DNA of 64,000 nucleotides from Candidatus Omnitrophota bacterium (GCA_022709525.1 JAKLIQ010000002.1:197523-261522); one strand, 5' to 3'; numbered from the stretch's first letter, positions 1-46,790 are shown. Numbers and translations: made by a program. Notes: generated from the letters alone by a model not told the origin.

Positions 1-3000
1 TGATCGGTTTCGATCGCAAAATCTTTTTTTTCACCGGAATGATGAACGTACCAATTTGTGATCTTGAAAAGCTCAACGATCTCTTCTACTTCTTTACTGA
101 TCCATACCTCCGTCATTCCCAACCCCGACGAAGAAGGTCCATGCAAATCCATGACGAGACCGTAATTTTCCAACAGAACAATGAGCTTGAAGGCAGAATC
201 AAAAGCTCCTTCCATAAGCCTAATATCATCGGATTTTACCTCATAAAGACCTGCTCTCTCTTTAAATCTGGGTATGAAATCCTTCATGTATTTCGAGGCG
301 GCCACCAGTTCTGCTTCGATCTGGCGAACCAGTTCTTTGAGAGCTGGAAGGTCCCCTTTTTCAACATTCTTCACCAGATCTCGATGTAGCTTATCGATCT
401 TTTTAATGATGCCGAGCGATCGAATGCCTTTGGAAGATCCCGGCTCGGAAAAAAATCGTTCGTTGAATTCGTTCCCCAGATCTTCGAATCCCTCGATCAT
501 CAAGGCGTACCCCATTCCACCCGTTACAGCATTGCGAAATTTATGAAGGGCCTGCGCAAAGATCTCGGTTTGTAATTTCAAGGCCTGCCGCGCGACAATG
601 TCGCTGGCCATAACCGGAGGCGGAATGGGAAGAACCGTCTCCACGGAAGTACCTTCTCCTGGCTTGCTTGTTAAATGAATCTTTCCACCATGACGCGTTG
701 CGATCGTTCCGGCGATCCAAAGTCCGAGCCCCCTTCTTTTTGCCGGTTCCGTCGTCCAAAAAGCGTGAAAGACCTCGGTTTTATCCTTCTCCTCAATACC
801 TTTTCCGGTGTCTTGAATGGTCACGGAAAACCGGCGAGCATCTATTTTCCGAGTAGAAATGGATATCGTTCCCCCTTTTTCCGTGGCTTGTTCCGCATTC
901 AGAAGGATCTCGGAGAAAGCCCTTTCAAGCGATGTCCTGTCGCTACGGACCCATAACGGCTCGGCGCTATAATTCTCAACAATCCTAATACCCTGCCGCT
1001 CATGGAGCTTTCGTTGCTCGATGACGGTTTGGATAACGCTGTGAATATCAAGGATCTCCGCGGAATCGGAAAGTGGCTGAGAAAATCTTAAGATATCATC
1101 AACGATCCCCGAAGTTTTACGGATCTCGTCTGCAATATGATCGATAGTGATCGTCAAAGCCGCAATTTCTTTTTCATCCAATCTTTGCTGTTTGGTCGAA
1201 GCTTTTTTAACTTCATCCAGTTGGCCTTGCATCTGAGCAAGGCGGTTTTGGAAATTATGGGCCATCCCTTCAGCTAGACGGGCCACAGCGGCTGATTTCC
1301 TCGCCTCAGCCAGATCTCTTTGTGTTTTTTCAAGCTCCTGGAGCTCTTTTTTAAGTCTTTCTTCCAGCTCTTTACGGGCAGTAATGTCTTGTTCTTCCAT
1401 GACGTACCCGACCAAACGGGTCTCTTCGTCCCGGATTTCGGCAATCGTCACGCTCGCGAGATAAATATTCCCGTCTTTTTTCTTGTGATAAAGTTCGCCC
1501 TTCCATTCGCCGCTTCGCGCGACGGTGGCCCACAAGTTCCGATAAAAATTCCGGTCATTACTGTTCGGCTTGAGAATACTTACATGATTCCCTTTGACCT
1601 GGCCAAATTCGTAGCCAGTCAACATCGTAAAGGCGGGATTGACATATTCGATATTGCCATGGGAATCCATGATGATAATACTGGTCGCTGTTTGTTCGCG
1701 GATACGTATTGATCTTTCGACCTCATCCTTCAGGCGATAATTTTCATCTTCGATTTTTTGATAAGCTTTTTTCTCGGCACGGGCCTGAATGGCTTGATAA
1801 ATAAGCCAAAAAACAAACGGCGGTAATCCAAGTAATAAAGAAAGAGTAACGTCGTGAACGCTGGCCGTGACAACGCTGGTGATAAATACGGCCAAACCAA
1901 GCCAGGCGCCGCCAAATCCCTTCTTGATGGCTAGGATTTTCCTTTGATTTTGGAGTTCCGCCAGGGTGCCCGCCGGCTTAAGCTTGATGATATCCGTGGT
2001 GTCCGTGGCGCTAAAAAATCCGATCTTTCTGAAAAATTCCCGGGCCTGGCGCTCATAAGCAGCGCTCCTTTCTTTCGCCATTTTTAGAAACTCTTCCGCC
2101 TCCTGGGAGAACATCATAGAGTCTCCGTTAAGATACTCGGCGATCACCTTTTCGATCTGATCCTCGAATTTCCCGTAGAATATATCCGCCTTAAGATCCG
2201 GGATCCGGGCAAGGTGAAGAAGCGAGCTTTCATTAGTAAGAAAACTATCCCGGATCATAGCTGCGATCACATTCGTGGCAACTTGGGTGTGGTCTTTTTC
2301 CGATGGCTCTTCTCTTGCTTCCGAACGGTTTAGCTTCTCTGAAAGAGCGCGTTCGATAACTAATTTTTCAGTTCCCATAAAGGACAATTCGAGCGCTTTC
2401 TGAGAGTTCTGCGGATTTTTTTCTTTGACAACCATGGGGTTTTTAGCTCCGGCTTGCCCTAAATCGATCTCGAGTTCCACCAAAACTCCCAGAACCTGCG
2501 CCTTTCCTTTCACGACGTTTTCTTTCCGGTAAACATCTTGCATGGTGGAAATAGCCGTCAGTATCCGTTTAAAATCAAACGTTTCCACTTCTTGATGCAA
2601 GAGATCCTGCGCTTTTGCCAATATTTCATATTGCATCCCCCGATCGTCTTGAACGCCGGATTTTTCCATAAGCTTATAAATCCTGGATGTTTTATCGTTG
2701 GGATGCATTATGTAGTCCGCTATTTCATGAATCAGGCTCCGGTTTTTCATGATCGATTGATCGGCATTCCCCAGCTCCGGAGACCGGTCGCTTGGATAGC
2801 CCTTAAAATTCGGTTCTAAACCCAGGATCTTTTGCGCTACTTCTTCAACAACATTCCGCATTTCGGAGCGAGGGTGTTTTTCGAATCGTTCCTTTTGAAT
2901 TCTCTGGAGGCCTTCGGAAACCGCGGATGAAACTCCCATAGCGCTGAATAAAAACCCTTTCATCATATCGCTTTGTTCGGCCTGCTTTGCTTTTTCTCTC

Positions 3001-6000
3001 GCGAAAACCTCATTCAAAGCTTTGGCGATCTTTTCCTCAACGTCCCCAAGCTCTTCCGGATTTCTCTCCGCGATAAAATGGAGCATTTCCACAATGCGAG
3101 TCCGTATCGCCCAACTATCGGTTTGGGGCAATAAAGCGAGAAGCTGATCGAATGTTTCTTGAGTAAGAATGGATTCGGAAGGGCCTTGCAAAATTCTTAA
3201 AACGCCTGCCAGACCGTCATCGTAGAACGTTTCTTCCTTTTGCGCTTCTTCCAAAAATCCTTCTTTGATCTCATCGAGCGTTCGTACTTCCGCGCGCAGG
3301 ACCTGACGGGCCTTCTCAACCAAATCATTCCCCGCTTCTTTCTCCAACGCTTTTCCATTCGACCGGATCTCTAAATAAACATATTGAATATTCGGGATTT
3401 TAGGCCTTCGATCGCCTGAATGAGCGTATCGAATCATGCGCGAATATTGCCGGAGGATCTCGATGCCTTGTTCCTTAAGCCAAGCGTCCACAATTTGTTC
3501 TGTATCCGGAGCGCTTTTAACCGCTATCAAAAGTTCAGTGTGATCCGCCACGGATGAAATGCCCGGCACAATGTCCGAAACGTTATAGATCTTGGATTGA
3601 GGATCACCTTTTTCTTGAGCAGATTTTTTTACCAGCTCCGACAAATCATCCGTGAGACGCCACAGTCTGTCTTCGCCGACGGTGGATGCCGCCATGTGCT
3701 CGGAAGGTAAACCGGCGAGACTTTTCGCTACTAAATTCCTTATGCTTTCTTTCCGGTTTTCTTCAACTAAGAGTCTCCGATTCAGATCCTCTCGCGCCCG
3801 GGCTTCCGGATCATCTTTGACGGGCATCAACTCTTCCCGACCGTGATTTTTTCTTTTATATTCTTCCTGTTGTCTTTTTTGCTGGACTGCATCCCAAATA
3901 GCGCGCCGGATCCGCTGCTGCTCTTTCTCTGAAAGGGCCTTCAGGGTCTTGAATTCCAGCGTGAAAAGAGAAGCGTAAACTTTGGCGCCTTTTGAATTTC
4001 GATAATTAGAATGAAGATAAGGATGCGAAACGACCAAAGGGGCTTGATCTGAAGGTTGCATGCTTTCTATAGCCTCGCCGATCGCTTTTTGAACGGCCTC
4101 ACCAAAGACGATCTCATGCTCATTGGCGGCGGCCACGACGATATCGACATACCCTTCCGGATCAACCAGAAAATCCACGAGAACGGTCCTGTCTTTATTG
4201 GCAGTTTTATCTTTAGGCGCGGTTTTGTCCTCTACCCTCTCTAGCATGGAGCTAACAATTTGATAGAACTTTTCCCGCTCTTGATAGTTGTCTGGAAATC
4301 CGGAATGGTTGATATCTTCAGGAAAATAACGCGAAGGAAGAATGGGGGTAAAATCCGTCGTTCCCCAACGCCTGGATTGGTCAGTATAAACTTTCGCTAA
4401 AAGCTGCTCCGGATCGTTTTGATGCGTTTCGCTTAGTCGCGTCTCAGACCTCAAAATATTCGATTTTTCCGCTCCTGCCCGCATTTCACCGCGCATTTGA
4501 GAATGGTAAGCAAATTGCGCGGGGTTATTTCTATTCAAGATTCTCATTAGGCGATAATAGTTCGCCGCGGGAGGCACATATCTGGCTTCGGGAAAGAATT
4601 GGTTGAAAGCGTTGGTCTTACCGCCGCTTGCCAAACGCGCTTGGACCTTTTTAACAACGCCTGTCGGACCGATATTATTCGCGGCAAAAAGAAATTTGAC
4701 CCACTCAGGTGAACGGGCAAATTGTGCGCCCAAGCCCAGGAAACCTTCCGCGCCAAAATCTTCGACAAGTTCTTGAATCTTTCTTGTAACCTCGGCGGAA
4801 TGCCCTGAAAAAATCAATGCTTCATAACGGATATTGATCTCGGGATCCAGAAGAAGCCGCGTCATTTCATCCCGATCTTTTTTACTATAAAGATTAAAAC
4901 CCTTCTTTGAAGTTCTAAATAGGTTCCTTCTAAGTGCTTCATCCAAAAAATTCTTACTGAAAGCGGTCTTTAAATTGATCTGGCAAATTCCGATGTCCGG
5001 ATAACTATCCCGGCCCTTGTTGGGGCTTATGGCCTGCGCATCAAAATTACTGGTCTCACGAAGAATAACCGTGAGAAGCATTTCAAGAGGAATGTCATTC
5101 TCACGGGCAGCCTGAATAAAAGTTCCCTTTGGAACACCGCTTTTTTTGGAAAACTGCTGTAAAAGATCCTCGGGAGTTATGTTGGAGAGAAACTCGATCT
5201 TTTTTTCAATGCTTATGCTTGGATCGTATCCAAAAAGATTTTTAAAAATGCGGTAATTCTGGTCGTTATCCATTGATGAAAGAACCTGACGAAGGGAGTG
5301 CTCGATATCCTTGGAACCTTTGGCGACCGCGGGTGTCTGGGCTTTTGGTGATGCGGGAGATGCGACTTCAAAATATTCGGGAGCACTACGAAAATTGTTA
5401 CCAACCTGGGAAACCTCAGCAGGCGGATCTTCTTTAGGCGACATATCTGCCAGCCGCTGTTTAAATGATTCCAATAAATAAGGGTAAGCCCAAAGGGTTG
5501 GGGGCAGCAATGCTAGCTCGGTCCAAAAAATGATCTTTATTGACCTGACAAGCCGCGCAATGCCAGCCCTAAGACCACCCTGCGAAGCCCGCGATTCTGA
5601 GCGAATGACAGCTAACTCTTTCGCATCCGTATCAAGCGAGAGTTCGGCACCTCCAATGATCCTGCCAAAACTTTCTTCGCTAATCGTAACGAGGGGAACG
5701 CCTAGATTTTTCGCCAGCGCCCTATTGTGATTTTCGATCTTACCGTCTGGGCTTACCACCACGATCGCTTTTGCCCCGAGATATCGTTCCGGAAAATCGG
5801 AAGGATAGAGAGTTTTTGTCACAACGATCTTATCCTGATAAGCATGCGACTCTGTTTTTTCTCCGGAAAGATTTCGCAGCAGCCTGAAGGTAATATCAAC
5901 AACATCAATAGCTTTATCTTGTAAGTCGGCGATTGCCGTTTTCTGAAACATTTCTGAAAATTTTTTCCCCGTTTCTAAAAGAGCTTGCTTCAAGTCCATG

Positions 6001-9000
6001 TTCTTTTCCAGATTTGGAACCACCGCTTCTTTAATAGCGCTTAAAAGCAAGACGTGACTTTCAAAAACAATTGATGTTTGATCGCTCTTGACAAGAAGGA
6101 TCCATCGCTCCCGAAGCGCTTCGATTTGATTTTTCGATACATCGAAGACGTTATTGAAGTCGGATTGGAAGGTTTTCGGACTCTGAGCAGAACCGGCCGT
6201 AAATAAAAGTGTCTTTCTTGAGTCTACTTGCGCAATACCGTCGACCTTCCCCGCGACGATCACCTGTTCTAGCGACAGCTTTTCACCGTCCCGCAATTCC
6301 GAACGCCTCACTTCCTTTATGAATTTTAGAAATCCCTTGTCATCACCCGACCCAAGCTCTTCATCTCCAAAAAGATACCCTGAATCGTTCTTTTCCAAAT
6401 TAAGCGTCCTAAAAAATTCTTTGGCCTCTTTTTCTCCCGTTTCGGAATCTTTGGGAATGCTGACATAAATACTGACCCCGCTTCCGCGGACAGACTCGGT
6501 CATCAATAGCTGCATGATGCTGTTCATGCTCACATCCTGATCCTTGGTCTTCAGTCGCGGAGAAAGCCCGGAATAACGTTCGGCTAATTTAACAAGGATC
6601 GTTGCTGGGCGAGCGTGAAGACTTGTTCCCCGTATTTCATAAAATGTCTCAAGAATAATTTTTTCCTCTTCCGCCGCTTCAACGCTCGGCGCCTCCTCTG
6701 TCTTCTCTCCGATTACAACATCCTCCGACTCTTCTGCGGTCGCATCCGGAGCTGAAAGAACCGATTCGGCCCCGGACTGGGTTTCCTCAACCACGATGAG
6801 GCCTGTTTCGCCGGGGCTCGTCAGGACCCTTGCCAGCCTGGATGGGGCCGCCTCGGGTTTATCCGAGTGTTCGGCCAATTTCTTCTCTAAATAAGCGCTT
6901 AGTTTTTCCTTAAGCTCTTTGTCGAGCGCATTGCCGTCTTTATCGACAAGAAAAATGCCTCTGGGACTTGTTGCCTTAACATCATCAAAAATAAAATCTT
7001 TGATGCCGACCCCGTCCCCTTTCTCGTATAAGATCGTGCTGATGGCGGCCAATAATCCCTCCCGGTCACTAGTCTCGACAATCAAAACATCCGAATGTCT
7101 TCCTATCTTTTCCTGTTTAAAAGGAATGTCCTCGAAGAGCTCGGAGGGACTCAAGAAACGCACCACGGTCTCAACCCCTTGCCAGTTCTCATAGTCTTTG
7201 TGAAGCTTAAGCTTATTTCCGTAGAGTCTTTTTGTATTGTCGAAGGGGCGATGCCGCACGCCAAAGAGACTGGCAAAAAAATCCGTCCGTCCCGACCCTT
7301 GGCTGTGGTAGATTTTTTGAAGATCTTCTTGGATTTTTTTAACTTTCGTCTCAACCGCCAATTCATCGCCTCGTTCATGCCGAAAATATCCCATGAAGCG
7401 GATCACAGCCCCTTCGTCCCCGAAATGAGGAACAGCTTCCTCCAAAATAAAACCGTTTTCATAAAGAACTCTCGAAAAAATGGGTACTAACTCTGGTTTG
7501 TATTCAGGATATCCCATTAAAATTTCATAACCTTCACGGGCATTGTCCGGTAACTTGCGGAAAAGCGTGAGAACCGTATCCGCAACTTTATTTTCCTTCA
7601 GCAATTGAAGGTGGATATAAAAAACAAGCGTCGTGACAATTTCCTGGATATCCAAAGCGCGTATGTAAGAGTAGCTTATAAGGCGTATACACTTTTCAAA
7701 TATCGAAGTGAAAATCTTTTCATCCTGTTTTTTCTCCTGGATTCCCAACATTTTTGCAATCTGAGTCTTGAGATCCGGGATATTCCCTTGGGAGGTTTGT
7801 TCTAAGTACTTTTCAAATAATTCGCCCGAATTGCGGTGCTCCAACCATTTCCAAGCAACTTCATCAAGGCGCTTTTCATGGAGCGTACGAAATAAATCCA
7901 GGGAATCGAGAGCATTGGGCGTTTGCATCGACCGCTGCATAACATAACCCTGCGTAAAAAGCTGGGTGATATAAAGTAAAGGCGATTGTTGGCCAAGCCG
8001 GATCAAGAGCGGCATTTTTTCCGGCTCTGCCAGAGATGCGCGGATAGAAAAAGTCATTAGATAAAGAAGCGTCCAGCGCTCTTTTGTTAGGCCGGGATTT
8101 GCGCTAAAGCGTCCCCACAGAGAGTCGATCTGTTCCTGAGACAGGAGATCTCTCTTGGAGATCTCCCTTTGACTCATTAACAGCCATACGATATCGTCCA
8201 AGGTTTTAGAATCAATCCCAACGGGATAAAGTGTTTCTTTCACAAGCTCCCGGATACTCCGTTCTGAGGCGCCGCTTCCTATCCTTGCGCGGACAATTCC
8301 ATCCATAAAGATGGCATATCGTAGCGTCAAGATCATCGATTCGTGCTCCGCAACCTCATGCATCACCTGCTTCGGTATGAGAAAGAAAAAGTTTCCCTTG
8401 CCCTCTAAAGTATCCAGGATCTCCAATGCGCGCATGGTCTGAAGATCTACCGAATATCGCTGACCCGCTTCAAAAAACGCTCGCATGGTTTTGTAGGTTG
8501 GAATAAAAATGTCCATAACATCGAGGCCATGCATCCGCCAAAGCGCATAAGAAGCAGGATTTTTAGATTGAAAGATCTCTTGAAAAACATTTTTTAGATG
8601 CGTTGACTCATCCTTTACTTCAGGATCTCCGCTCCGAATGCGTTCCATTAGAAGATCCAGCTGCTGTTTGGTCTGCAAAATCGCCTGCTGTGTTTTTTCG
8701 CTGATGCGAACTCCATAGAGGACCGTCAGCGCAAAAACATCAAAAATGAGTTCCGGCCGACCCGTAAATAATTCGACAGCGTTTTTGATGTGCAACTCAT
8801 GGTCCCTGCCATATCCCCATCCGACATTCCTTCGAAAGGTAAACCCTTCCGTGGTGACAAGTTCGATCTGATCGGAGGCAAAACCTGCCCGTTGAACTCT
8901 CTCACCTAAATCATAGGGCGTGTATTTAGGTGGAAATTGATTCAATAAAAGCCGGCGGCTCATTAAAACAATGTCATCAAAAACACTCGTGGTCGCTTCC

Positions 9001-12000
9001 CGATATTCTTTAAAAAAAGCCTGAAAGGTCTTCTCATCATCGGTCGGCAGCCATTCAACGGTCTGACCCAAAAGCTCATAGTGCCTTCTGTAAAATTTCA
9101 AGAAATCATTCACAAAGGAGGGGTGCAGAATATTCTGCTTCAACTTTTTATCTTTTTGGTATTCACGAAAGACGTCGCGAATGCTTTTAAGAAAATCAAA
9201 ACGCCGGAGAAGAAGCAGGTCCTCCTCGCGAGACTCCAGGAGTTCCTGGTCCTTTTGACCAATAAAATCCTTGATGCGATAATGGCGGATGATCCTTTCT
9301 AGCTCATCGCGGGTCATCTCATCTTTCGGATCAAGGGCTAATCGCTCTCTCAAGGCTCTTAGCTCTTCACTTTCATCTTGCCATAACAGCTTCACGATCA
9401 GGCGCTTCAAAAAGTTGAATTCCTCAAAAGATCCTTCCCCTTTAACCGGATCGATATTGAGACGGTAAAAAGCGTTGTCGAAACCTGCTTTTTGGTACCG
9501 CGACTGCCATTCCTCAAGCACAACCAAAATACTGCTGACTTTCCTAAAAGCATCGGAGGCTTTTTTGGAGGCCCGCTGATCCGCATCTCCGACAAGATGC
9601 TCCAAAAAGGAAAAATCGAAAGAGCTGTCGATATGCCTGGAAACCAACTTAGCATGTGCGATCTTATTAGGAGACATGCTCAAGGTAAGTGTTAAATGAT
9701 TACCAAAACGTTTTTTCAGAAATTTTGAAAAAAGTATGAATTTATCATGAGAGGCGACTTCACCGCAAAAACTTAAACCTACGTTTCTTCCTGTTCTTAA
9801 ATTTAGATCCGCAATGGTTGAAGCGATCTTCAAATAAAGTTCAACGTTGTTCGGATCCAGCCTTTCAATCCAGGGCTGCGCCCAGGCATAGTCGCGATTT
9901 GCATGAACCGAAACACCCGTCTGCTCCAAAAGGAATTTCTCCAAAAGTTTCATTTCTAAATCATTTGTTCCCACGCTAATAAATTTGACGAACGGTTTTC
10001 CATGCCTTTGAAAATTAAGGATTTTTTCGAGCTCCTGGACCGCCTGGGGAGTTTCGACCATAGCGCCATAAGAGATCGTCTCAACGATCTGAGAAACCAT
10101 TTCCTTGGGTTCCTGCGTCCCGCGCTCTTTCAAAACTTGGCTAGCAACCACTTCGGCCTGCTCTAATATTTCGTTGCTAATGAATTCGATATCCGCAAGG
10201 CCGTCAATTTGAGGAAACATGAGTTTGAGACGAGGGGTCTGCCCCTGACGGGATTTCAACAGTTGTTCCTGAACGATAATCAGCGCCGCAACTTGCTGGG
10301 TGAGAATTTCTTTCCCGAGAGGGGTGCGATAGAAATTAAACCCCGAATACTCTTCCGTGAATGCGTTCCAATCCTCCGCCGCATACCCAAAAACTTTGAA
10401 TAGGACATCAAAGAGATCGGTGTTTTTATCCGGCCAAAGATCGAGTGTGCGAAACACTTGGTCTTTGTCGACAAGAGACGGATTATCCAGCTGCGCAAAG
10501 TAGGATTGTTCGAGATGAAGACGGAACAAATCTAGAGACTTTTTGAGACGATCCGGAACCCTGGATAAAATAGCGGTTGATCGCCCAATGGTGTTGTGTA
10601 ATTCGACCAACGAAGGATCGACCTCCAAATGGTTGACGGGTTCGATTGAATATAGTTTCTCAAGGTAAGACCCGAATGTTGCTATGTTGGAATTGAACAA
10701 TTCCGGATGGTCTTTGGAATCGAAAAAATTAAGCACGAAATCGACAAGCCAATCGTCATTTTGAGACGTTTCAACCTTTTTAAGATTGTAATATTTTTCG
10801 AGTTTTTTCTGGACCGAGAGAATGATTTTTTTTACGGCGGCACGACGATTTCTTGGGACCGATGAAATCTTCGCCAGTTCCCTGATTGCGTCCATGAGGA
10901 GCTTTATGACCGTGGAAGTATCCGACGATTCAAAATGATAAGCTCTCTCTAAATACTCCAGCAAAGATTGGACGGCCCTTTGAAGGGCTTGTGTTGATTT
11001 TATTTCTAGCGCCAATGTGGTCGCAATATCTTCGACCATTTTTGTGATAGCTTTGTCAACCTCAGAACGGGTTAGCCCTATCCCTTCTGCTTTTGATTCG
11101 ATAACGCTTTGAGTTTCACCAACAAAAGTATTGGCAAAAAAATTCAGATTGGAATCTTTAATGTGTGCGCTTCCTTTCTCCGCAATCCGCATCAGCTGAT
11201 CCCCGCGTTCTTTTTCTATGGCTCCCTGAATCTCTTTTTTACCGGGATGGAGCAGAAAATATCCTTGAATCCCCTCTTCGCCCAGCGTTGCGGAGACAAT
11301 GACTTCATCCCCCGCACTCAGCTTTTGAAACAATTTTTCGTTTTCATCATCAGGCGAGATCACCAGAACCGGAGGAGGATTCGGATATTGCTGCAACGCT
11401 ACCACCCAATGGGTTGAAAGGTTAGCTTGAGTGGTCACAATGGCCTTAATTTGCGAGCCGAATTGCGTCATAATATCTTCGACTTTGTCGACCCCCATCG
11501 TTTCGGAGATATAAAGAACAACGCCTCCAGAAGATTTTTCCGGCATGGCGATTTGAAAAGTTTTTGCCTTCCCATGTCTGGAAACGAGCTCGGCGATCAG
11601 GCGGTGAGCTATGCTAATGTATTCTTCCCAGTCCTGGACCATGCCAGGCAAACCTTTCGAACGATAAAGCTCTTGCTGATCATAAAGGCCCGCACTTTTT
11701 TTTGAGAGAACATCCTCATAAAAAATGGCGGCAAAATTCTTCTTCTCTTTTTTCATACGTTCTAGCGTTTCTTTCTTGCTTTCCTCAGATTTAAAATAAG
11801 CTTGAGCCGGCTTTAAAACGGTTTGTTGGGCCATCATCTTCATGCTGTCTTTGGCTGCATAATCTAAATAAATCCGTCGGGTCCCTTCTAGGGCGTCTCT
11901 AAGCTTTGGATCCGTGACTGCATTATTTTCAAGCGCCTTTCGTATCTCGTTAAATATCCCGGCCCGTTTTGAAAAGGAGCCCGGCTTAACTGCCTCCTTT

Positions 12001-15000
12001 AGATCGATCAGGGATAAATGCGCAAATGCTTCGGCAGCTCTTTCTGTTTCCTCCATTTTTCTTTCGAGATCCTGAATCCTTTTTTCGTAGTCATTTACAA
12101 AATCGTTCAGGGCGTTTTCGGCGAACTCAAGCTCCTCCTCAGCAGAACCGGAAAATCCCAATTGCTGCAACGCATACATTTTGATTTGATTCATAATGTG
12201 ATCCAGCGATGGTTTCCGCTTCGGATCTTGAATCCCTTTTGTGCGCAACCGCCGCAAAAGACCCCCAATTAAATTGATAGTCCTTGTTTTCCTGTTAAGA
12301 AGTAGATCTATTTTTATTTCGCGCTTAAGCTCATCAGCTTCCTTTTGAAGCAATTTTTGAAGGTCTCGAGAAATATTCTCTGAAGTTTTTTCAATAATAG
12401 AATTTAGCTTTTGAGCTTCTCCTATAAAGCTTTCCTTAGGCGCCTGGTAAAGGATCTCTTCAGGGAGCGCGTTAGCGAAAACAGCGAGAGGAGCAAAGAC
12501 GCTCGCTTCCGCCGTGCTCTCTCCGACAATCCGCATTTCGGAGCGAGGGTCGCCGGGCTTTTTTTGTTCAGTGGAAAGATCTAAAACTCCTTTTTCAACA
12601 ATAACCTGCTTAGTATTTTGCTCAAGGAGGTCTTGGACGGTATCGCTGGAATCACCCAAGATCGGAGTTAAAAGACGGCGGATGCGTTTCATATCGAAGC
12701 GCCCGTCTTTTTCGGCTTCCGCAAGGAGATTGTTCGCGATGACTTTCAATTCCAGGAAGCTCAACTTTTTTGGATCATACTCCCCAACAGTGTCTAAAAG
12801 ATTTGCCACGAGCTCATCGAACTTGGATGCCTGGCCGTTTTTTGGCACTGGCTGAACTTTTTCCATCTCGACGAGTTTCTGGAGATTTTTTTCCAAAGCC
12901 ACCCGGTCAAAGGATTCTTCTGACGTTTTTGTAACCGCTTCGTTCTTCCCTGCTTCCTCCCGCGTTTCGGAGCGAGCTGCGGGCAATTGTCCGTATTCAA
13001 CATGAATGATATCGCTTAGGTTGGCGGTCTGCGGCTCGCTTGAGGATAAAACCGCATGAATCGTCAATGCATCCGCTTTTCCAAAAGTAATGTCCGTAAC
13101 GACAGGTTCGATGCCTTGGCCATAAGCCACAAAAGTCGCGAAAGAGCTGTCGCCTGTTAGCGCTTCCGGCATGACCGCGGCGTTTTGAGAAGTTATGTTC
13201 AAGGGAGAGGTCCGGGTTTGAAATCGAAGCGTCTTGTCTTGGTCTGCGCGAAGCGGTTCCGCGCTCAAAACTTTTGAAAGCACGGGATGAGCGGCGACCG
13301 CTTGTTTGACATGAGCGGCCACTTGATCCGGGGAGTTTTGATATTTTTCAAAAAGCGCCGGAGCGGCGGTCTCAAGTAATTGCCTGAACAGAATGGCTTC
13401 TTGTTTGGTGCTGAAAGGATTTTTGGTTTTGAAATAAGGGCCAAGGTCCGCATTTGCGCCCGTCATGACCTTTTGATAACGTTCCCCGCCATCGACGCCA
13501 CGGATCCTGGGCGACACAACCGCATAACCGATCCCTTCTTCCTGGAGGAGCTTTTCGAGCCCTTCGGTATGAAAGCCGCCGGTCACTAACACGATAACCC
13601 GGGATTTGGGACTCGGGACTCGGGACTCGTTTTGGTTTCTTGTTTCACGAGTCCCGAGGTGCGAGGTATGAGTCCCCGTTGAAAACGCCAAGGCGTTTTC
13701 AAGCATGGCTCGATCACGCTTAGTCGAAGTCGCGTAGAACTGATAGGCCTGCGCAATAAAAGGCTTTATATTCGGGATATTTTTCGCCAGAACTTCCAGA
13801 TCGCCGCGCCGGTCAAGCGCTTGTTCATATTCGGGACGCGCCAACTCAAGATGGAGAAGTTTTGTGAGGAGGGAGAGATCATTCAAACGCTCGATGAATT
13901 GTTTTTCCGTGTCCGTCTTGGCCGATCTTTCCAGGATATTCTCCTCCAAAGAAGCCATTTCATCCAAAAGCCCCGTGATCTCGACTTCGGAACGCAAGAC
14001 AAGGACCTTCCAGCTTTTCATGAAATGAGAATATGCCTTAAGATCCACCGGATGTTTTTGGATAAAAAGCATCAGGCCTTCAAGAAGTTTCCGGGGATAG
14101 AGGGCGCGCTCGACCGGATAGGAGAACTGTTCCCCCTCCGCCTCCGGCAAAAGCCCCTGCTCGCGGCCGTATGTTTCGAGCGCTTTAACGAATTTCAGCT
14201 CCGACTTTTCTTTCGCGGAAACCCGCAAGGCGTCCAGAACATCAGCCCATTCCCTTTTGGCGGCCTCCTGATCGAAACCTTTTTGGGCCTCCTCGGTCAG
14301 AAGAACGCGGATCAGGTTCGGAAAACGCAATTGCTCGATCGTGTCGGTCAGATCGATCTGAAGAACTTTGAGGGTCTGGGACTTTAGATAGCGGATATAA
14401 GCGACAAGATCCGGATCCCCCGACGCCTGCGACATATTGAACTTACCTTCTTTGCGACGCTCCCGCTCCTTGAGAAAATCACGCAGGTCGGGATTCAGGG
14501 CCTTGGAAGATTCTTTTTCGAGTTGAGCGCGCAGGGGATTCAGAAGCGTCCCGATCTCGTCGCGGCGGAATAAAAGATCGCGAAAGGTCTTCAGGTTCTC
14601 GCGGTAGAGTTCGGCGTCTTCAACGCCTTCCACTCGGACTTGAGACTTGAGACTTGAGACTTCAGACACTAGTCTCTGGTCACTAGTCTCCGGTCTGTTC
14701 TGAAACTTGTCCCAAAGATACAATTCCACGCCGTTCAATTCGCCTTTTTGGCGGAGATCGTCAACAACGGCCCGGTTCGCTTCGGGGAATTCAGAGAAAA
14801 ATTCGAAATATTCGGGATGAAGACGGCCTTTGGCCCCTTCAAGGCCGATGGTCAGATCGGGGAATTTTTCTTCCAGGTAACGGAGAATACCCGCAATATT
14901 CTGTTCCGCTTCGGGATTGGAGTGGGCGTCCTGGATCTGGATCACAAACGGTTTTCCGGCCACCGCCCGGCCCGGCTCCCAGGAACGGGTCACCAAACCC

Positions 15001-15191
15001 AGTTCGGCGGGCAACGCCGAAAGATGGGTCTGAAACTCATTTTGTGTCCCGCGCTTGCTTAGGAATTGAAAAGCATCCTCATAGGCAAAGGCGCCGGACG
15101 GATCGATCGTGATCGTGGTTACCGTGAATGCGACGGCCACGAATAAAGAAATTCCCCTAAGCAGGCAGGATCTGGTGTTAGAAACTGTCAT
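1..15191 (-). CDS. Giant multidomain protein (>5063 aa, C-terminus beyond window start): signal peptide, PEP-utilising His and TIM-barrel domains, HPr-like domain, GlnD-like ACT domain, SLT-like segment, TM helices, PAS-HisKA-HATPase_c sensor kinase module
   Basis: ATG at 15189-15191 (minus) is preceded by an in-frame TAA three codons upstream. Hand translation in that frame (codon top coordinate = 2 mod 3) runs stop-free to position 3. The ORF track lists no minus-strand ORF in this frame between 1 and 15200 and would omit an ORF that lacks an in-window stop; every minus ORF it lists here is in another frame. Recognised motifs: MTVSNTRSCLLRGISLFVAVAFTV...AFA signal peptide; AIVTTQANLSTHWVVALQQYPNPPPVLVI (phospho-His swivel domain); KLMFPQIDG / SYGAMVETP / FISVGTNDLEMK / LSFCGEVASHD (PEP-utilising TIM barrel); GTSLHARPATILVKLAERYSG...MNSIMQLLM (HPr); RHSDVLIVETSDREGLLAAISTILYEKG (ACT); GICQINLKTA (SLT-like); GMAHNFQNRL plus DTGKGIEE...GLGLWIAGTIATRHGG (HisKA/HATPase_c). 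Confidence 0.85.
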   Translation of the reverse strand, partial: MTVSNTRSCLLRGISLFVAVAFTVTTITIDPSGAFAYEDAFQFLSKRGTQNEFQTHLSALPAELGLVTRSWEPGRAVAGKPFVIQIQDAHSNPEAEQNIAGILRYLEEKFPDLTIGLEGAKGRLHPEYFEFFSEFPEANRAVVDDLRQKGELNGVELYLWDKFQNRPETSDQRLVSEVSSLKSQVRVEGVEDAELYRENLKTFRDLLFRRDEIGTLLNPLRAQLEKESSKALNPDLRDFLKERERRKEGKFNMSQASGDPDLVAYIRYLKSQTLKVLQIDLTDTIEQLRFPNLIRVLLTEEAQKGFDQEAAKREWADVLDALRVSAKEKSELKFVKALETYGREQGLLPEAEGEQFSYPVERALYPRKLLEGLMLFIQKHPVDLKAYSHFMKSWKVLVLRSEVEITGLLDEMASLEENILERSAKTDTEKQFIERLNDLSLLTKLLHLELARPEYEQALDRRGDLEVLAKNIPNIKPFIAQAYQFYATSTKRDRAMLENALAFSTGTHTSHLGTRETRNQNESRVPSPKSRVIVLVTGGFHTEGLEKLLQEEGIGYAVVSPRIRGVDGGERYQKVMTGANADLGPYFKTKNPFSTKQEAILFRQLLETAAPALFEKYQNSPDQVAAHVKQAVAAHPVLSKVLSAEPLRADQDKTLRFQTRTSPLNITSQNAAVMPEALTGDSSFATFVAYGQGIEPVVTDITFGKADALTIHAVLSSSEPQTANLSDIIHVEYGQLPAARSETREEAGKNEAVTKTSEESFDRVALEKNLQKLVEMEKVQPVPKNGQASKFDELVANLLDTVGEYDPKKLSFLELKVIANNLLAEAEKDGRFDMKRIRRLLTPILGDSSDTVQDLLEQNTKQVIVEKGVLDLSTEQKKPGDPRSEMRIVGESTAEASVFAPLAVFANALPEEILYQAPKESFIGEAQKLNSIIEKTSENISRDLQKLLQKEADELKREIKIDLLLNRKTRTINLIGGLLRRLRTKGIQDPKRKPSLDHIMNQIKMYALQQLGFSGSAEEELEFAENALNDFVNDYEKRIQDLERKMEETERAAEAFAHLSLIDLKEAVKPGSFSKRAGIFNEIRKALENNAVTDPKLRDALEGTRRIYLDYAAKDSMKMMAQQTVLKPAQAYFKSEESKKETLERMKKEKKNFAAIFYEDVLSKKSAGLYDQQELYRSKGLPGMVQDWEEYISIAHRLIAELVSRHGKAKTFQIAMPEKSSGGVVLYISETMGVDKVEDIMTQFGSQIKAIVTTQANLSTHWVVALQQYPNPPPVLVISPDDENEKLFQKLSAGDEVIVSATLGEEGIQGYFLLHPGKKEIQGAIEKERGDQLMRIAEKGSAHIKDSNLNFFANTFVGETQSVIESKAEGIGLTRSEVDKAITKMVEDIATTLALEIKSTQALQRAVQSLLEYLERAYHFESSDTSTVIKLLMDAIRELAKISSVPRNRRAAVKKIILSVQKKLEKYYNLKKVETSQNDDWLVDFVLNFFDSKDHPELFNSNIATFGSYLEKLYSIEPVNHLEVDPSLVELHNTIGRSTAILSRVPDRLKKSLDLFRLHLEQSYFAQLDNPSLVDKDQVFRTLDLWPDKNTDLFDVLFKVFGYAAEDWNAFTEEYSGFNFYRTPLGKEILTQQVAALIIVQEQLLKSRQGQTPRLKLMFPQIDGLADIEFISNEILEQAEVVASQVLKERGTQEPKEMVSQIVETISYGAMVETPQAVQELEKILNFQRHGKPFVKFISVGTNDLEMKLLEKFLLEQTGVSVHANRDYAWAQPWIERLDPNNVELYLKIASTIADLNLRTGRNVGLSFCGEVASHDKFILFSKFLKKRFGNHLTLTLSMSPNKIAHAKLVSRHIDSSFDFSFLEHLVGDADQRASKKASDAFRKVSSILVVLEEWQSRYQKAGFDNAFYRLNIDPVKGEGSFEEFNFLKRLIVKLLWQDESEELRALRERLALDPKDEMTRDELERIIRHYRIKDFIGQKDQELLESREEDLLLLRRFDFLKSIRDVFREYQKDKKLKQNILHPSFVNDFLKFYRRHYELLGQTVEWLPTDDEKTFQAFFKEYREATTSVFDDIVLMSRRLLLNQFPPKYTPYDLGERVQRAGFASDQIELVTTEGFTFRRNVGWGYGRDHELHIKNAVELFTGRPELIFDVFALTVLYGVRISEKTQQAILQTKQQLDLLMERIRSGDPEVKDESTHLKNVFQEIFQSKNPASYALWRMHGLDVMDIFIPTYKTMRAFFEAGQRYSVDLQTMRALEILDTLEGKGNFFFLIPKQVMHEVAEHESMILTLRYAIFMDGIVRARIGSGASERSIRELVKETLYPVGIDSKTLDDIVWLLMSQREISKRDLLSQEQIDSLWGRFSANPGLTKERWTLLYLMTFSIRASLAEPEKMPLLIRLGQQSPLLYITQLFTQGYVMQRSMQTPNALDSLDLFRTLHEKRLDEVAWKWLEHRNSGELFEKYLEQTSQGNIPDLKTQIAKMLGIQEKKQDEKIFTSIFEKCIRLISYSYIRALDIQEIVTTLVFYIHLQLLKENKVADTVLTLFRKLPDNAREGYEILMGYPEYKPELVPIFSRVLYENGFILEEAVPHFGDEGAVIRFMGYFRHERGDELAVETKVKKIQEDLQKIYHSQGSGRTDFFASLFGVRHRPFDNTKRLYGNKLKLHKDYENWQGVETVVRFLSPSELFEDIPFKQEKIGRHSDVLIVETSDREGLLAAISTILYEKGDGVGIKDFIFDDVKATSPRGIFLVDKDGNALDKELKEKLSAYLEKKLAEHSDKPEAAPSRLARVLTSPGETGLIVVEETQSGAESVLSAPDATAEESEDVVIGEKTEEAPSVEAAEEEKIILETFYEIRGTSLHARPATILVKLAERYSGLSPRLKTKDQDVSMNSIMQLLMTESVRGSGVSIYVSIPKDSETGEKEAKEFFRTLNLEKNDSGYLFGDEELGSGDDKGFLKFIKEVRRSELRDGEKLSLEQVIVAGKVDGIAQVDSRKTLLFTAGSAQSPKTFQSDFNNVFDVSKNQIEALRERWILLVKSDQTSIVFESHVLLLSAIKEAVVPNLEKNMDLKQALLETGKKFSEMFQKTAIADLQDKAIDVVDITFRLLRNLSGEKTESHAYQDKIVVTKTLYPSDFPERYLGAKAIVVVSPDGKIENHNRALAKNLGVPLVTISEESFGRIIGGAELSLDTDAKELAVIRSESRASQGGLRAGIARLVRSIKIIFWTELALLPPTLWAYPYLLESFKQRLADMSPKEDPPAEVSQVGNNFRSAPEYFEVASPASPKAQTPAVAKGSKDIEHSLRQVLSSMDNDQNYRIFKNLFGYDPSISIEKKIEFLSNITPEDLLQQFSKKSGVPKGTFIQAARENDIPLEMLLTVILRETSNFDAQAISPNKGRDSYPDIGICQINLKTAFSKNFLDEALRRNLFRTSKKGFNLYSKKDRDEMTRLLLDPEINIRYEALIFSGHSAEVTRKIQELVEDFGAEGFLGLGAQFARSPEWVKFLFAANNIGPTGVVKKVQARLASGGKTNAFNQFFPEARYVPPAANYYRLMRILNRNNPAQFAYHSQMRGEMRAGAEKSNILRSETRLSETHQNDPEQLLAKVYTDQSRRWGTTDFTPILPSRYFPEDINHSGFPDNYQEREKFYQIVSSMLERVEDKTAPKDKTANKDRTVLVDFLVDPEGYVDIVVAAANEHEIVFGEAVQKAIGEAIESMQPSDQAPLVVSHPYLHSNYRNSKGAKVYASLFTLEFKTLKALSEKEQQRIRRAIWDAVQQKRQQEEYKRKNHGREELMPVKDDPEARAREDLNRRLLVEENRKESIRNLVAKSLAGLPSEHMAASTVGEDRLWRLTDDLSELVKKSAQEKGDPQSKIYNVSDIVPGISSVADHTELLIAVKSAPDTEQIVDAWLKEQGIEILRQYSRMIRYAHSGDRRPKIPNIQYVYLEIRSNGKALEKEAGNDLVEKARQVLRAEVRTLDEIKEGFLEEAQKEETFYDDGLAGVLRILQGPSESILTQETFDQLLALLPQTDSWAIRTRIVEMLHFIAERNPEELGDVEEKIAKALNEVFAREKAKQAEQSDMMKGFLFSAMGVSSAVSEGLQRIQKERFEKHPRSEMRNVVEEVAQKILGLEPNFKGYPSDRSPELGNADQSIMKNRSLIHEIADYIMHPNDKTSRIYKLMEKSGVQDDRGMQYEILAKAQDLLHQEVETFDFKRILTAISTMQDVYRKENVVKGKAQVLGVLVELEIDLGQAGAKNPMVVKEKNPQNSQKALELSFMGTEKLVIERALSEKLNRSEAREEPSEKDHTQVATNVIAAMIRDSFLTNESSLLHLARIPDLKADIFYGKFEDQIEKVIAEYLNGDSMMFSQEAEEFLKMAKERSAAYERQAREFFRKIGFFSATDTTDIIKLKPAGTLAELQNQRKILAIKKGFGGAWLGLAVFITSVVTASVHDVTLSLLLGLPPFVFWLIYQAIQARAEKKAYQKIEDENYRLKDEVERSIRIREQTATSIIIMDSHGNIEYVNPAFTMLTGYEFGQVKGNHVSILKPNSNDRNFYRNLWATVARSGEWKGELYHKKKDGNIYLASVTIAEIRDEETRLVGYVMEEQDITARKELEERLKKELQELEKTQRDLAEARKSAAVARLAEGMAHNFQNRLAQMQGQLDEVKKASTKQQRLDEKEIAALTITIDHIADEIRKTSGIVDDILRFSQPLSDSAEILDIHSVIQTVIEQRKLHERQGIRIVENYSAEPLWVRSDRTSLERAFSEILLNAEQATEKGGTISISTRKIDARRFSVTIQDTGKGIEEKDKTEVFHAFWTTEPAKRRGLGLWIAGTIATRHGGKIHLTSKPGEGTSVETVLPIPPPVMASDIVARQALKLQTEIFAQALHKFRNAVTGGMGYALMIEGFEDLGNEFNERFFSEPGSSKGIRSLGIIKKIDKLHRDLVKNVEKGDLPALKELVRQIEAELVAASKYMKDFIPRFKERAGLYEVKSDDIRLMEGAFDSAFKLIVLLENYGLVMDLHGPSSSGLGMTEVWISKEVEEIVELFKITNWYVHHSGEKKDFAIETD
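620..1700 (-). other. PAS + HisKA + HATPase_c sensor histidine kinase module near the C-terminal end of the giant protein, preceded by 2 TM helices (~1800-1960)
   Basis: PAS: IIIMDSHGNIEYVNPAFTMLTGYEF...GEWKGELYHKKKDGNIYLASVTIAEIRDEE. H-box GMAHNFQN. N, G1 and G2 boxes LLNAEQATEKGG, DTGKGIE, GLGLWIA. A second H-box-like segment LHKFRNAVTGGMGYALMI lies further towards the window edge. Confidence 0.7.
6400..6650 (-). other. HPr-like phosphocarrier domain embedded in giant protein
   Basis: GTSLHARPATILVKLAERYSGLSPRLKTKDQDVSMNSIMQLLMTESVRGSGVSIYVSIPKDSE has the GxHARPAxxLV active-site His and the KSIMG-like Ser region of HPr. Confidence 0.55.
9740..10500 (-). other. PEP-utilising enzyme TIM-barrel domain embedded in giant protein
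   Basis: FISVGTNDLEMKLL (antisense of 9960-9990) and LSFCGEVASHDKFILF (antisense of 9745-9790) match the S(I)GTNDL and CGE(L)AgD signatures. The upstream KLMFPQIDG and SYGAMVETP segments match the remaining conserved blocks. Confidence 0.6.
11190..11460 (-). other. PEP-utilising enzyme mobile (phosphohistidine) domain embedded in giant protein
   Basis: AIVTTQANLSTHWVVALQQYPNPPPVLVISPDD...GDEVIVSATLGEEGIQGYF aligns to the GxxTxxGGxTSHAAIxAR...PxVVG consensus of enzyme I / PPDK / PEP synthase. Confidence 0.55.
13604..13676. repeat. Palindromic repeat element (family A copy 1), in frame inside giant CDS; 7-nt unit GGGACTC x3 plus inverted arm CGAGTCCCGAGG
   Basis: gggactcgggactcgggactcgttttggtttcttgtttcacgagtcccgagg. 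Homologous to 29493-29570 and 46716-46790. Confidence 0.7.
14634..14712. repeat. Palindromic repeat element (family A copy 2), in frame inside giant CDS; 7-nt unit ACTTGAG x3(+1 degenerate), CACTAGTCTC x2, GTCTCCGGT core
   Basis: ggacttgagacttgagacttgagacttcagacactagtctctggtcactagtctccggtctgttctgaaacttgtc. Shares the GTCTCCGGT...TTGTTTCAC-like core with 46741-46790. Confidence 0.65.
15084..15191 (-). other. Predicted signal peptide of the giant protein (basic N-region, hydrophobic core, AFA-YE cleavage-like site)
   Basis: Translation MTVSNTRSCLLRGISLFVAVAFTVTTITIDPSGAFA. Confidence 0.5.
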
Positions 15192-15420
15192 GTTTTTTTA
15201 TCTTTTTGGTTCCATTGGTATTGGGAAATAACCTTGAAAATGAACGGTCCTTTAAGAACTTATTTTCAAGATTTATAATCTTTTGAAAGTATAGCCGCTG
15301 ATTTCGAGGTTTGTCAAATGAGGATGGATTTCTTAAGGATTGAAAATAAAGGAGTTACAGCATTTTTTTTGATATCTTTTTAGAACCGTTTGGAACGAAA
15401 CTGAAATTGAGGCCACCGGA

Positions 15421-15429
15421 GGGGGGGGG
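15421..15429. repeat. Homopolymeric G9 tract ~230 nt upstream of the giant gene start, next to a 9-bp inverted repeat (GACTTCCTG...CAGGAAGTC, 15436-15477)
   Basis: ccaccggaggggggggggaggacgacttcctg...caggaagtctttt seen directly. Confidence 0.6.
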
Positions 15430-15493
15430 AGGACGACTTCCTGAGGATAACGCGCTGCCGTGCCGAAGCGCCGCAGGAAGTCTTTTATGCCTA

Positions 15494-29325: not shown

Positions 29326-29403
29326 CCCTGGCTTTTATTTACTCTTTATTGAAAAGCCAGGACAACACTCATTTTCAAATAAAAACTTAATAGAGAATAA
29401 GTG

Positions 29404-29492: not shown

Positions 29493-29570
29493 GGGGACTC
29501 GGGACTTGCCCCTCGGGACTCGTTAGGGTTCCTCGTTTTATCGAGTCCCTAGTCCCGAGGAACGAGTCCC
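29493..29570. repeat. Palindromic repeat element (family A copy 3), intergenic between tRNA-Lys and frr
   Basis: ggggactcgggacttgcccctcgggactcgttagggttcctcgttttatcgagtccctagtcccgaggaacgagtccc. GGGACTCG arms are inverted against CGAGTCCC. Confidence 0.7.
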
Positions 29571-29579
29571 TTACTTCTG

Positions 29580-30893: not shown

Positions 30894-30967
30894 ATCTCAG
30901 TTCTCAGCCATCCGCTATCAGCGATCAGTTAAGAACTGACGGCTGATACCTGAAAGCTGCGGGCTGC
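30894..30967. repeat. Short intergenic repeat (family B copy 1) between pyrH and tsf
   Basis: tctcagttctcagccatccgctatcagcgatcagttaagaactgacggctgatacctgaaagctgcgggctg. Shares TCAGTTCTCAGC, CTATCAGC, GGCTGA and GGGCTG blocks with 32888-32972. Confidence 0.6.
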
Positions 30968-32887: not shown

Positions 32888-32972
32888 TTTTTCAGTTCTC
32901 AGCTGTCAGCTATCAGCCGTCGGCCAACGGCTAAAAAAGACTTTGTTGATGGCTGAAATCTGAGGGCTGAAG
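32888..32972. repeat. Short intergenic repeat (family B copy 2) between aspA stop and rpsB leader
   Basis: tttcagttctcagctgtcagctatcagccgtcggccaacggctaaaaaagactttgttgatggctgaaatctgagggctgaagac. Confidence 0.6.
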
Positions 32973-32973
32973 A

Positions 32974-34371
32974 CTATTTCGGAGGCCGGGTCAAATTCTC
33001 CGGAGAAAGGATCCTGGCAAGCTCTTTTTCGCTCAGAAACCCTTTGGCGAGAACCACTTCCCGCAAGGTCCGCCTCGTGCGAACGGCCTCTTTGACACAT
33101 TCGGCGGCTTTGGAGTATCCGATATGGGGGTTTAGCGCGGCCGCGATCCCAAAACTGTTCTCGGCATAATACCGGCATTTTTCCGGATTTGCCTGGATCC
33201 CGGCGATACAGCGGGTTTTCAGGACTTTGACGGCATTCTTGAGGATCTCGAAGGATTGCAAGAGGTTATGGACGATCACGGGACGCATCACATTAAGTTC
33301 ACATTCCCCGCCGGCCGCCGCGAAAGCGATCGCGGCATCGTTGCCGATCACCTGATAGCCGACCTGGGCGGTCATCTCCGGGATGACCGGATTGACCTTC
33401 CCCGGCATGATCGAAGAGCCCGGCTGAAGGGCCGGCAGGCGGATCTCGCCGAAACCGGTGTTCGGCCCGGAGCTTAAGAGCCGGAGATCGTTGGCGATCT
33501 GGATCAATGAGAGCGCATAATCGCGTAGCGTTCCCGATATGGCGGCAAAATCGGCGTCGTTTTGCATGACCGCAAAAAGGTCGCGGGACGCTTTGACCGG
33601 AAATTGGGTTATTTGTTTTAAATGCTTGATAACGGCTTTACGATAACGAAGCGAGGTGTTCAGCCCCGTACCGACCGCGGAACCGCCGATCCCAAGCTCA
33701 TAAAGACCGCGCGCCATCAATGTGACCCGTTCCCTGCCTTTTTGAAGCTGTGTCGCCCAACCCGAAAATTCCTGCCCCAGCGTAACCGGGGCCGCGTCCT
33801 GAAGGTGCGTCCGTCCGGCTTTGACGACACGGCGGAATTGTCGGGATTTTTTCATGAGCGCGGCTTCGAGTTCTTTAGATGCGGTGCAAAATTCTTTTGA
33901 AAGCCGGAGCGCCGCGATCCGAAGCGCCGTCGGGATCACATCATTCGTGGATTGCCCCATGTTGACGTGGTCGTGGGAGTGCAGAAAGGCGTGATCGCCG
34001 CGTCTTTTCCCCAAAAGCTCCAGAGCGCGGTTCGCGATCACTTCATTTGCGTTCATGTGCGCCGATACCCCCGCGCCGGATTGGAGGACATCAGTCACGA
34101 ACTCGCCGTGATGCTTCCCCGAGATCACTTCCTGGCAAGCGCGAATGACCGCGTTCGCGCGCCGGGCGTCCAAGCGGCCGAGCGAGCGGTTCGCCATTGC
34201 GCACGCTTTTTTGATCATGGCCAAGGCCTTGATAAATTCGGGATGAAAACGCATACCGGAGATCGGAAAATTCTCGACCGCCCTTAGGGTCTCGATGCCG
34301 TAATAGACATGGGAAGGGACCGGCTTGGTCCCGAGAGAATCTTTTTCGATCCTGAATTTCTTTTTTTTCAT
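32974..34371 (-). CDS. aspA: Aspartate ammonia-lyase (fumarase/aspartase class II family)
   Basis: GSSIMPGKVNPVIPE signature and N-terminal YYGIETLRAVENF, which is aspartase-like rather than FumC-like. Start at MKKKKFRIEKD (ATG 34369-34371) with AGGAG 8 nt upstream. The longer track ORF has no RBS. Confidence 0.75.
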   Translation of the reverse strand: MKKKKFRIEKDSLGTKPVPSHVYYGIETLRAVENFPISGMRFHPEFIKALAMIKKACAMANRSLGRLDARRANAVIRACQEVISGKHHGEFVTDVLQSGAGVSAHMNANEVIANRALELLGKRRGDHAFLHSHDHVNMGQSTNDVIPTALRIAALRLSKEFCTASKELEAALMKKSRQFRRVVKAGRTHLQDAAPVTLGQEFSGWATQLQKGRERVTLMARGLYELGIGGSAVGTGLNTSLRYRKAVIKHLKQITQFPVKASRDLFAVMQNDADFAAISGTLRDYALSLIQIANDLRLLSSGPNTGFGEIRLPALQPGSSIMPGKVNPVIPEMTAQVGYQVIGNDAAIAFAAAGGECELNVMRPVIVHNLLQSFEILKNAVKVLKTRCIAGIQANPEKCRYYAENSFGIAAALNPHIGYSKAAECVKEAVRTRRTLREVVLAKGFLSEKELARILSPENLTRPPK

Positions 34372-46704: not shown

Positions 46705-46715
46705 AAATATCATCC

Positions 46716-46790
46716 TAGACCAAAGACCACAGACTAGAGACTACAGCAAAAGATTTTAAGTCTTTTGTCTCCGGTTTTCAGTCTTGTTTC
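46716..46790. repeat. Palindromic repeat element (family A copy 4), intergenic between sufC and sufD (3' end overlaps the sufC stop region)
   Basis: tagaccaaagaccacagactagagactacagcaaaagattttaagtcttttgtctccggttttcagtcttgtttcac. AGACT/AGTCT inverted arms and the GTCTCCGGT...CTTGTTTCAC core are shared with copies 1 and 2. Confidence 0.6.

Follow-up and report, generated by a model that had tools for sequence, protein, structure and literature searches.

Palindromic heptamer repeat elements between and within genes of Omnitrophota

A 64,000-nt stretch of DNA from a Candidatus Omnitrophota bacterium (GCA_022709525.1 JAKLIQ010000002.1:197523-261522), referred to here as the window, contains two palindromic repeat elements, E1 and E2, that lie within a giant gene and are built of 7-nt units. 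The analysis indicates that E1 and E2 are probably copies of two families, the GGGACTC type and the AGAC type, of a palindromic heptamer class of Omnitrophota. Such elements resemble the repetitive extragenic palindromes (REPs) and short tandemly repeated repetitive (STRR) sequences of other bacteria and would be carried in coding sequence as in-frame passengers, not as a switch. According to this explanation, copies between genes would fold into stem-loops at the 3' end of transcripts or between cistrons and thereby influence where transcripts end or how stable they are, and coding copies would be tolerated passengers that survive only with a length that is a multiple of three, without a stop codon and at a surface-loop site. 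The element present at a site would be exchanged between lineages by short-tract homologous recombination and possibly by re-insertion, slippage would homogenise the units within an element, and none of the elements would act as an on/off switch of the giant gene.

Periodicity, architecture and families of the elements

Self-comparison of the window detected 26 self-match windows (at least 17 of 21 positions) at a lag of 7 nt, while lags of 5, 6, 8 and 9 nt yielded 0, 0, 0 and 1. Similarly, there were 18 cases of a 4-mer with three occurrences spaced by 7 nt, compared to 0-3 cases in 20 shuffles. This excess over other lags and over shuffled sequence demonstrates that the 7-nt periodicity is not due to chance. 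The count was extended to 80 genome loci (1.24 Mb) with homologues of the N-terminal domain of the giant protein, which contained 58 lag-7 arrays, 13 arrays at lag 14 and no more than 8 at any further lag tested outside the multiples of 7. Family profiles were built without any window sequence and then run against the window. The only matches of the GGGACTC-family profile were 29494-29567 (E 5e-19) and 13601-13671 (E 5e-16), and those of the AGAC-family profile were 46717-46785 (E 5e-13) and 14637-14698 (E 6e-11). Periodicity, shuffles and profiles together verified that both heptamer palindromes within the giant gene, first described in a reading of the sequence alone, are real. E2 ends near 14703 rather than at 14712 as given there. 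The proposed homology to intergenic copies was also recovered by the profiles, with the restriction that E2 and the copy at 46716-46790 share unit type and architecture and no long alignable core. Two additional elements (30897-30966 and 32892-32975) bring the window total to six, two coding (E1 and E2) and four intergenic (E3-E6; Table 1).

The elements are 65-90 nt long. One arm consists of three to five degenerate 7-nt units, in each of which 4-5 nt form a conserved core and 2-3 nt a variable spacer, and the second arm is its inverted complement. A single strand folds as a 'beaded' hairpin, with pairing of the conserved 4-5-bp cores and small internal loops at the 2-3-nt unit spacers. On the plus strand, E1 comprises three GGGACTC units (13608-13628), a loop and a degenerate inverted arm, and E2 comprises four GACTTGA units (14637-14664) followed by two copies of ACTAGTCTCyGGTC. 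Most window elements fold better than shuffled sequence (z -2.7 to -5.2), including E1 (-35 kcal/mol, z -4.45), E3 (-45.9 kcal/mol, z -5.18), E5 (-32 kcal/mol, z -4.41) and E6 (z -3.64). The strand asymmetry of the folding energy is inconsistent from copy to copy, so that RNA-level and DNA-level structure are not separable by this measure. RNAalifold returned only the 8-bp core for the GGGACTC family; as this core is invariant because it was fixed by the search pattern, covariation within the family is uninformative. A simple scan for canonical intrinsic terminators did not flag the elements on the sense strand.

Several unit families were distinguished, including GGGACTC, AGACnnn, TCAGCnn, GGAGGGC/CTCCATC, CGTACGG, GCGCAAC, CCACGGT and AACGCTA. 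The GGGACTC family possesses a non-repetitive core of 18-19 nt, GGGACTCG-nnAAACnAGnAACCnnAA-CGAGTCCC, which is common to E1, E3 and the copies in L001 and L004 (L numbers designate the loci compared with the window). The sequence-only reading had called for a search for copies elsewhere, and a metagenome scan with the GGGACTC core pattern yielded 13 further loci, 12 of them intergenic. A profile search of these loci revealed many additional copies, and one 8.7-kb contig contains at least six, one per examined spacer of a hisC-aroF-tyrA-rpsA operon. Most copies are intergenic, with a preference for spacers directly after stop codons, and the asymmetric GGGACTC core is co-directional with transcription in 14 of the 15 scorable copies. 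Rfam searches at the gathering score identified tRNA-Lys alone in the window and no family for the elements, and at E<=1 they returned nothing credible for L084 (six copies) or for window positions 29200-33100. Two element patterns had no match in viral contigs. Integron attC-like sites, suggested by the 7-nt core, were rejected, as the units do not fit RYYYAAC/GTTRRRY.

These data bear on the proposal that no dispersed elements exist and that the repeats are independent, local microsatellite-like expansions or ordinary low-complexity linkers. The unit sequences do vary by site and lineage, slippage can create tandem units, and the encoded peptides are hydrophilic low-complexity loops. However, the non-repetitive core is found at different sites and in different genomes, in coding and non-coding DNA alike, and one genome carries the identical loop TAAAAGTCGAAG in its copies in the giant gene and in a UvrD gene. 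Intergenic copies and inverted arms cannot be explained by an origin at the protein level. The proposal is largely refuted, and we regard it as hardly credible.

Table 1. The giant gene and the six heptamer elements of the 64-kb window
Feature	Position	Strand	Description
Giant gene, 5' 15.2 kb	3..15191	-	Signal peptide, conserved N-terminal domain of ~650 aa, then PEP-utilizer, HPr, PAS and HATPase domains
E1	13601..13677	-	GGGACTC-family heptamer palindrome, in frame, ~aa 505-531 TGTHTSHLGTRETRNQNESRVPSPKSR; loop 'site A' directly before the GGFH motif
E2	14628..14703	-	AGAC/GTCT-family heptamer palindrome, in frame, ~aa 164-188 QNRPETSDQRLVSEVSSLKSQVRV; loop 'site B' after GELNGVELYLW
E3	29493..29572	-	Intergenic GGGACTC-family copy, 8 nt past the frr stop codon and 17 nt short of tRNA-Lys
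E4	46714..46790		Intergenic AGAC-family copy, takes up the sufC-sufD spacer and extends into the stop codon of sufC
E5	30897..30966		TCAGCnn-type heptamer palindrome, fills the 74-nt tsf-pyrH spacer
E6	32892..32975		TCAGCnn-type heptamer palindrome, from the fumarase stop codon to just upstream of the rpsB promoter (32884-32857)

Coding copies and the proposed phase-variation switch

The giant gene has no stop codon from 3 to 15197 on the minus strand; an ATG lies at 15191, and the N-terminus encoded from there resembles a signal peptide. The full product of this ~18 kb gene, as seen in contigs of other samples with identical sequence, measures ~6021-6038 aa and is probably secreted. Pfam domains (Table 1) were detected downstream of the N-terminal domain. 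The latter (aa 50-660, with the motifs IQDAH, LEGA.G and GGFH) belongs to no Pfam family, and a Foldseek search against the PDB gave no significant fold match; weak erythromycin-esterase-like matches (E ~1-2) are a lead only. Homologues of the first 698 aa are almost exclusively from Omnitrophota; a single one is from Elusimicrobiota. In this gene family, assemblies often stop within or just past the N-terminal domain (L001, L003, L007, L008 and L012), and the repeats may add to the fragmentation of the giant genes in short-read assemblies.

As the sequence-only reading had stated, E1 and E2 are translated as low-complexity inserts (...GTRETRNQNESRVPSPKSRV... and ...RPETSDQRLVSEVSSLKSQVRV...) that leave the reading frame unbroken. 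The first 698 aa were modelled with AlphaFold (mean predicted local distance difference test, pLDDT, 77; predicted template modeling score, pTM, 0.78), with confident prediction outside the termini and three internal stretches (169-183, 352-363 and 507-529). The first and last of these stretches are the peptides of E2 (169-183) and E1 (507-529), both with pLDDT <50, and the middle one lies inside another insertion hot spot of the domain. As predicted by this model, the E1 and E2 peptides are disordered loops at the protein surface.

Coding arms are concentrated in this domain. The N-terminal domains contain 64 arms in 156 kb (4.1 arms per 10 kb), the rest of the same giant genes 2 arms in 419 kb (0.05 per 10 kb) and the flanks 27 arms in 693 kb (0.39 per 10 kb), which corresponds to a ~85-fold enrichment of the domain over the rest of the same genes. 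Control arms at lag 8 numbered 0, 0 and 6 in the three compartments. The coding arms fall on five sites (window-protein aa 66-83, 160-189, 317-360, 459-478 and 485-534). At least one element is present in 25 of the 83 loci, and the other 58 domain homologues have no detectable element. Two in-frame copies each were also found in a valyl-tRNA synthetase (ValRS; L092 7290-10145) and a UvrD/PcrA helicase (L069 7533-9716) of other Omnitrophota, where they are insertions relative to the solved homologues 1gax and 1pjr. The same families occur in frame in unrelated genes and are missing at orthologous sites. Comparison of the orthologous giant genes found these sites empty or occupied by other unit families. 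Intergenic copies, in-frame copies in the giant gene, ValRS and UvrD, orthologous sites that are empty or hold another family, and an exchange of E2 in a close strain (see below) all support the earlier suggestion of a family resembling REPs or miniature inverted-repeat transposable elements (MITEs) that colonises coding sequence.

The second suggestion, that gain or loss of a 7-nt unit by slippage frameshifts the 18-kb gene at high frequency and acts as a phase-variation switch, is not supported by the comparison. As in contingency loci, the unit is not a multiple of three, and three to four perfect tandem copies lie within the reading frame. Units of one element also share substitutions, as in L001, where all three right-arm units carry the same G-to-A change. 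This points to slippage on evolutionary time scales; only in-frame outcomes were seen. Unlike contingency loci, however, the tracts are short (none of the 93 arrays exceeds four perfect units), all 64 coding arms at 25 loci lie in intact reading frames, and copies occur in essential genes. Two independent assemblies of the locus are 100% identical, E1 is the same in L099, a strain of 98.8% identity, and three pairs of assembled contigs (99.6-99.98% identity, ~8 elements) showed no change in unit number. The same elements are present in ValRS and UvrD, and a frameshift switch in ValRS would be lethal. Among the assembled contigs, no long perfect tract, length polymorphism or alternation of on and off frames, the hallmarks of contingency loci, was found. 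A switch is considered very improbable.

A different kind of length change was observed between L004 and L095 (99.7% identical), where an unrelated gene carries the sole indel in 12 kb, an in-frame tandem duplication of 30 nt (L004 3775-3804).

Turnover at fixed sites

Site A of the N-terminal domain is occupied by heptamer elements of at least six unit families in 10 of 21 orthologues and by a short native loop in 9-10. The carriers are not monophyletic. The three with a GGGACTC-type element are not sisters, and L003, the nearest relative of L004 (70% aa identity), carries a different family at this site. Turnover was also detected among close strains, using contigs that share a nearby window protein. 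Two of these match the window at 100% identity over 15-21 kb, and L099 is 98.8% identical. In L099, E1 is unchanged, while 14628-14703 (E2, AGAC type) is exchanged for a GGGACTC-type element that has the family core, is 15 nt longer and remains in frame. The flanks of the exchange are free of mismatches for at least 165 and at least 750 nt, and three native codons beside the exchanged element (RVE) differ synonymously. L099 has further mosaic patches of 50-90 nt. Short patches with dense substitutions, set in DNA that is otherwise almost identical, are located at 13298-13345, 15299-15430 and 18509-18594, and one of them alters aa 615-631 of the giant protein. Such patches are a signature of short-tract recombination with diverged relatives. 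Together with the synonymous changes in RVE, they make short-tract recombination with a diverged allele the likeliest route of the exchange, a step that we infer.

Intergenic sites behave alike. The rpsB-tsf-pyrH-frr-tRNA cluster was compared between the window, L003 (EF-Ts 88% identical), L105 and L107 (EF-Ts 92-93%). The tsf-pyrH and frr-tRNA spacers contain heptamer palindromes in all four lineages; the post-fumarase spacer contains them in the window and L003, and its periodicity is indistinct in L105 and L107. Each occupied spacer of the cluster holds three or four different unit families. An aro-rpsA operon (L084, L085 and L046) likewise has elements with different units in the same spacers. 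As different unit families recur in the same spacers and loops across lineages, the addresses persist and the sequences are replaced.

The tolerated-passenger explanation has to be weighed against several of these observations. At site A, the element DNA is 84-91% identical between genomes and the adjacent conserved coding DNA 63-68%, which is not as expected of a vertically inherited neutral passenger. Long-lived occupancy of a site with complete replacement of the sequence is more suggestive of function or homing than of mere junk, and passive tolerance fails to explain the concentration of arms in the N-terminal domain. Some copies fold no better than shuffles (z -0.2 to -1.0). Regarding mobility, no transposase was found among the Pfam matches of open reading frames in the window, and there is no REP-type GTAG/CGTC tag, the GGGACTC family ending in GGGACTC...GAGTCCC with unrelated flanks. 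No consistent direct repeat indicative of a target-site duplication was found beside the copies, filled and empty sites being highly diverged. Separately, small codon-level palindromes beside insertion sites (GAAAACGCCTTGGCGTTTTC and GGCGTTGAAGACGCC) were considered as a target motif and set aside, as conserved residues can explain them.

Some of these points fit another explanation, in which the repeats are functional nucleic-acid elements at fixed sites, either hairpins or protein-bound arrays of 7-nt-spaced cores, in spacers and in the 5' 2 kb of the giant mRNAs. Possible roles are in the processing of transcripts, in pausing or in antitermination, and sequences would be swappable as long as the architecture is kept. 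This would account for different unit families at identical addresses, both in spacers and in the five loops, for the ~85-fold enrichment, for the orientation bias and for element DNA that is more conserved than the neighbouring codons. In addition, the spacer bases of the two arms are often non-complementary, which argues that the inverted periodic core, and not helix stability, is the conserved feature. On the other hand, about half of the orthologues at site A and most domain homologues lack a detectable element, one arm is lost in several coding copies (L001, L004, L007 and L012), no Rfam family or partner protein was recognised for the elements, and the enrichment could stem from a few ancient insertions passed on by gene duplication. 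A functional role of this kind is judged unlikely. Also doubtful is a site-anchored cassette system in Omnitrophota, in which a dedicated mechanism, e.g. a hairpin-recognising single-strand recombinase or transposase, would actively and precisely exchange elements at fixed addresses. If true, a required structure would be kept between genes and loop peptides in the exposed N-terminal domain of giant surface proteins would be swapped between strains, providing loop diversification instead of on/off switching. In-frame passengers of REP/STRR-like families remain the preferred explanation for E1 and E2.

Three observations were made around the intergenic elements. Between a LysR-type gene and tRNA-Lys, 29283-29325 forms a near-perfect hairpin (18-nt arms, 94% complementary) in which the motif ACCCAAAA recurs with 8-nt periodicity; the hairpin lies outside the heptamer class and probably serves as a terminator in both directions. 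A leader of ~360 nt (32493-32856, minus strand) extends from a strong promoter (TTGTTA-16-TATAAT, 32884-32857) to the rpsB start and is conserved in L003, L105 and L107. No Rfam match was obtained for it even at E<=1, and it may represent an undescribed S2 leader or small RNA. Finally, in the relatives L105 (5990-8500) and L107 (6100-6150), whose EF-Ts is 92-93% identical, the sequence becomes unrelated after the start of tRNA-Lys (GGGCCCGT), and in L105 genes for a large serine recombinase and a DUF2924 protein are located there. This suggests that an element has integrated at tRNA-Lys.

Relation to known repeats and significance

Classical roles proposed for REPs are the protection of transcript 3' ends and differential expression within operons. 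In proteobacteria, REPs, bacterial interspersed mosaic elements (BIMEs) and REP doublets forming hairpins (REPINs) are short, imperfect, multi-copy palindromes that lie mostly outside genes, after stop codons or between co-transcribed genes, and comprise several sequence families per genome (PMC3733652, PMC3116915). The Omnitrophota elements are likewise short, imperfect, multi-copy and mainly extragenic palindromes, and they too fall into several families. One end of REPs and REPINs is marked by the tetranucleotide GTAG or CGTC (PMC3733652). In contrast, no such tag is present at the Omnitrophota elements and no gene for a REP-associated tyrosine transposase (RAYT) was found near them within the window. 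They are also longer (65-90 nt versus the usual 20-40 nt), are built of 7-nt units and lie repeatedly in frame in coding DNA. Of MITE traits they have the inverted arms; no parent insertion sequence was identified.

The cyanobacterial STRR sequences consist of 7-bp tandem intergenic units that are able to form hairpins; their function is unknown, with proposals that include transcript stability, translational coupling and termination (PMC2670836). The Omnitrophota elements are also hairpin-forming tandem heptamers between genes. The title of Jackman & Mulligan 1995, cited in PMC2670836, speaks of structured but highly variable intergenic regions in close relatives, and as far as this title goes, variable yet structured spacers match the persisting addresses with replaced sequence described above. 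STRR sequences differ in phylum (heterocystous cyanobacteria) and in their units. The STRR1 unit, CCCCAGT or GGGGACT on the other strand, would agree with CGGGACT of the Omnitrophota elements at 6 of 7 positions. Small dispersed repeats within heptamer arrays were reportedly described in Nostoc by Elhai et al. in 2008.

For the coding copies, the closest likeness is to the Rickettsia palindromic elements (RPEs), which according to Ogata et al. in 2000 are said to lie in frame in unrelated, even essential, genes and to be translated as extra surface peptides. The Omnitrophota elements share the in-frame position in unrelated genes, including essential ones, and the predicted surface loops of E1 and E2 fit the same pattern. 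RPEs reportedly differ in that they measure 100-150 bp, are not composed of heptamers and are confined to Rickettsia, and similarity in sequence to the Omnitrophota elements is not expected. Strict membership fails for the REPs, as there is no GTAG/CGTC tag, and for the STRR sequences, as units and phylum differ; it is doubtful for the MITEs, as no transposase or target duplication was seen. By analogy, the elements appear to behave as REP/STRR sequences between genes and as RPEs within genes.

In the literature on Omnitrophota giant genes, as far as searched, palindromes, hairpins or heptamers are not mentioned, and the repeat class is apparently new to the description of this phylum. It extends the short list of bacterial palindromic elements by one class and provides a second clear case, after Rickettsia, of palindromic repeats that are translated within essential genes. 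In practical terms, assemblies break at the elements, proteins appear more diverged than they are, and the annotation of giant genes acquires spurious low-complexity regions. Fixed addresses with complete sequence replacement, even at 98.8% identity, offer a testable handle on the question whether REP/STRR-type hairpins are selfish or functional.

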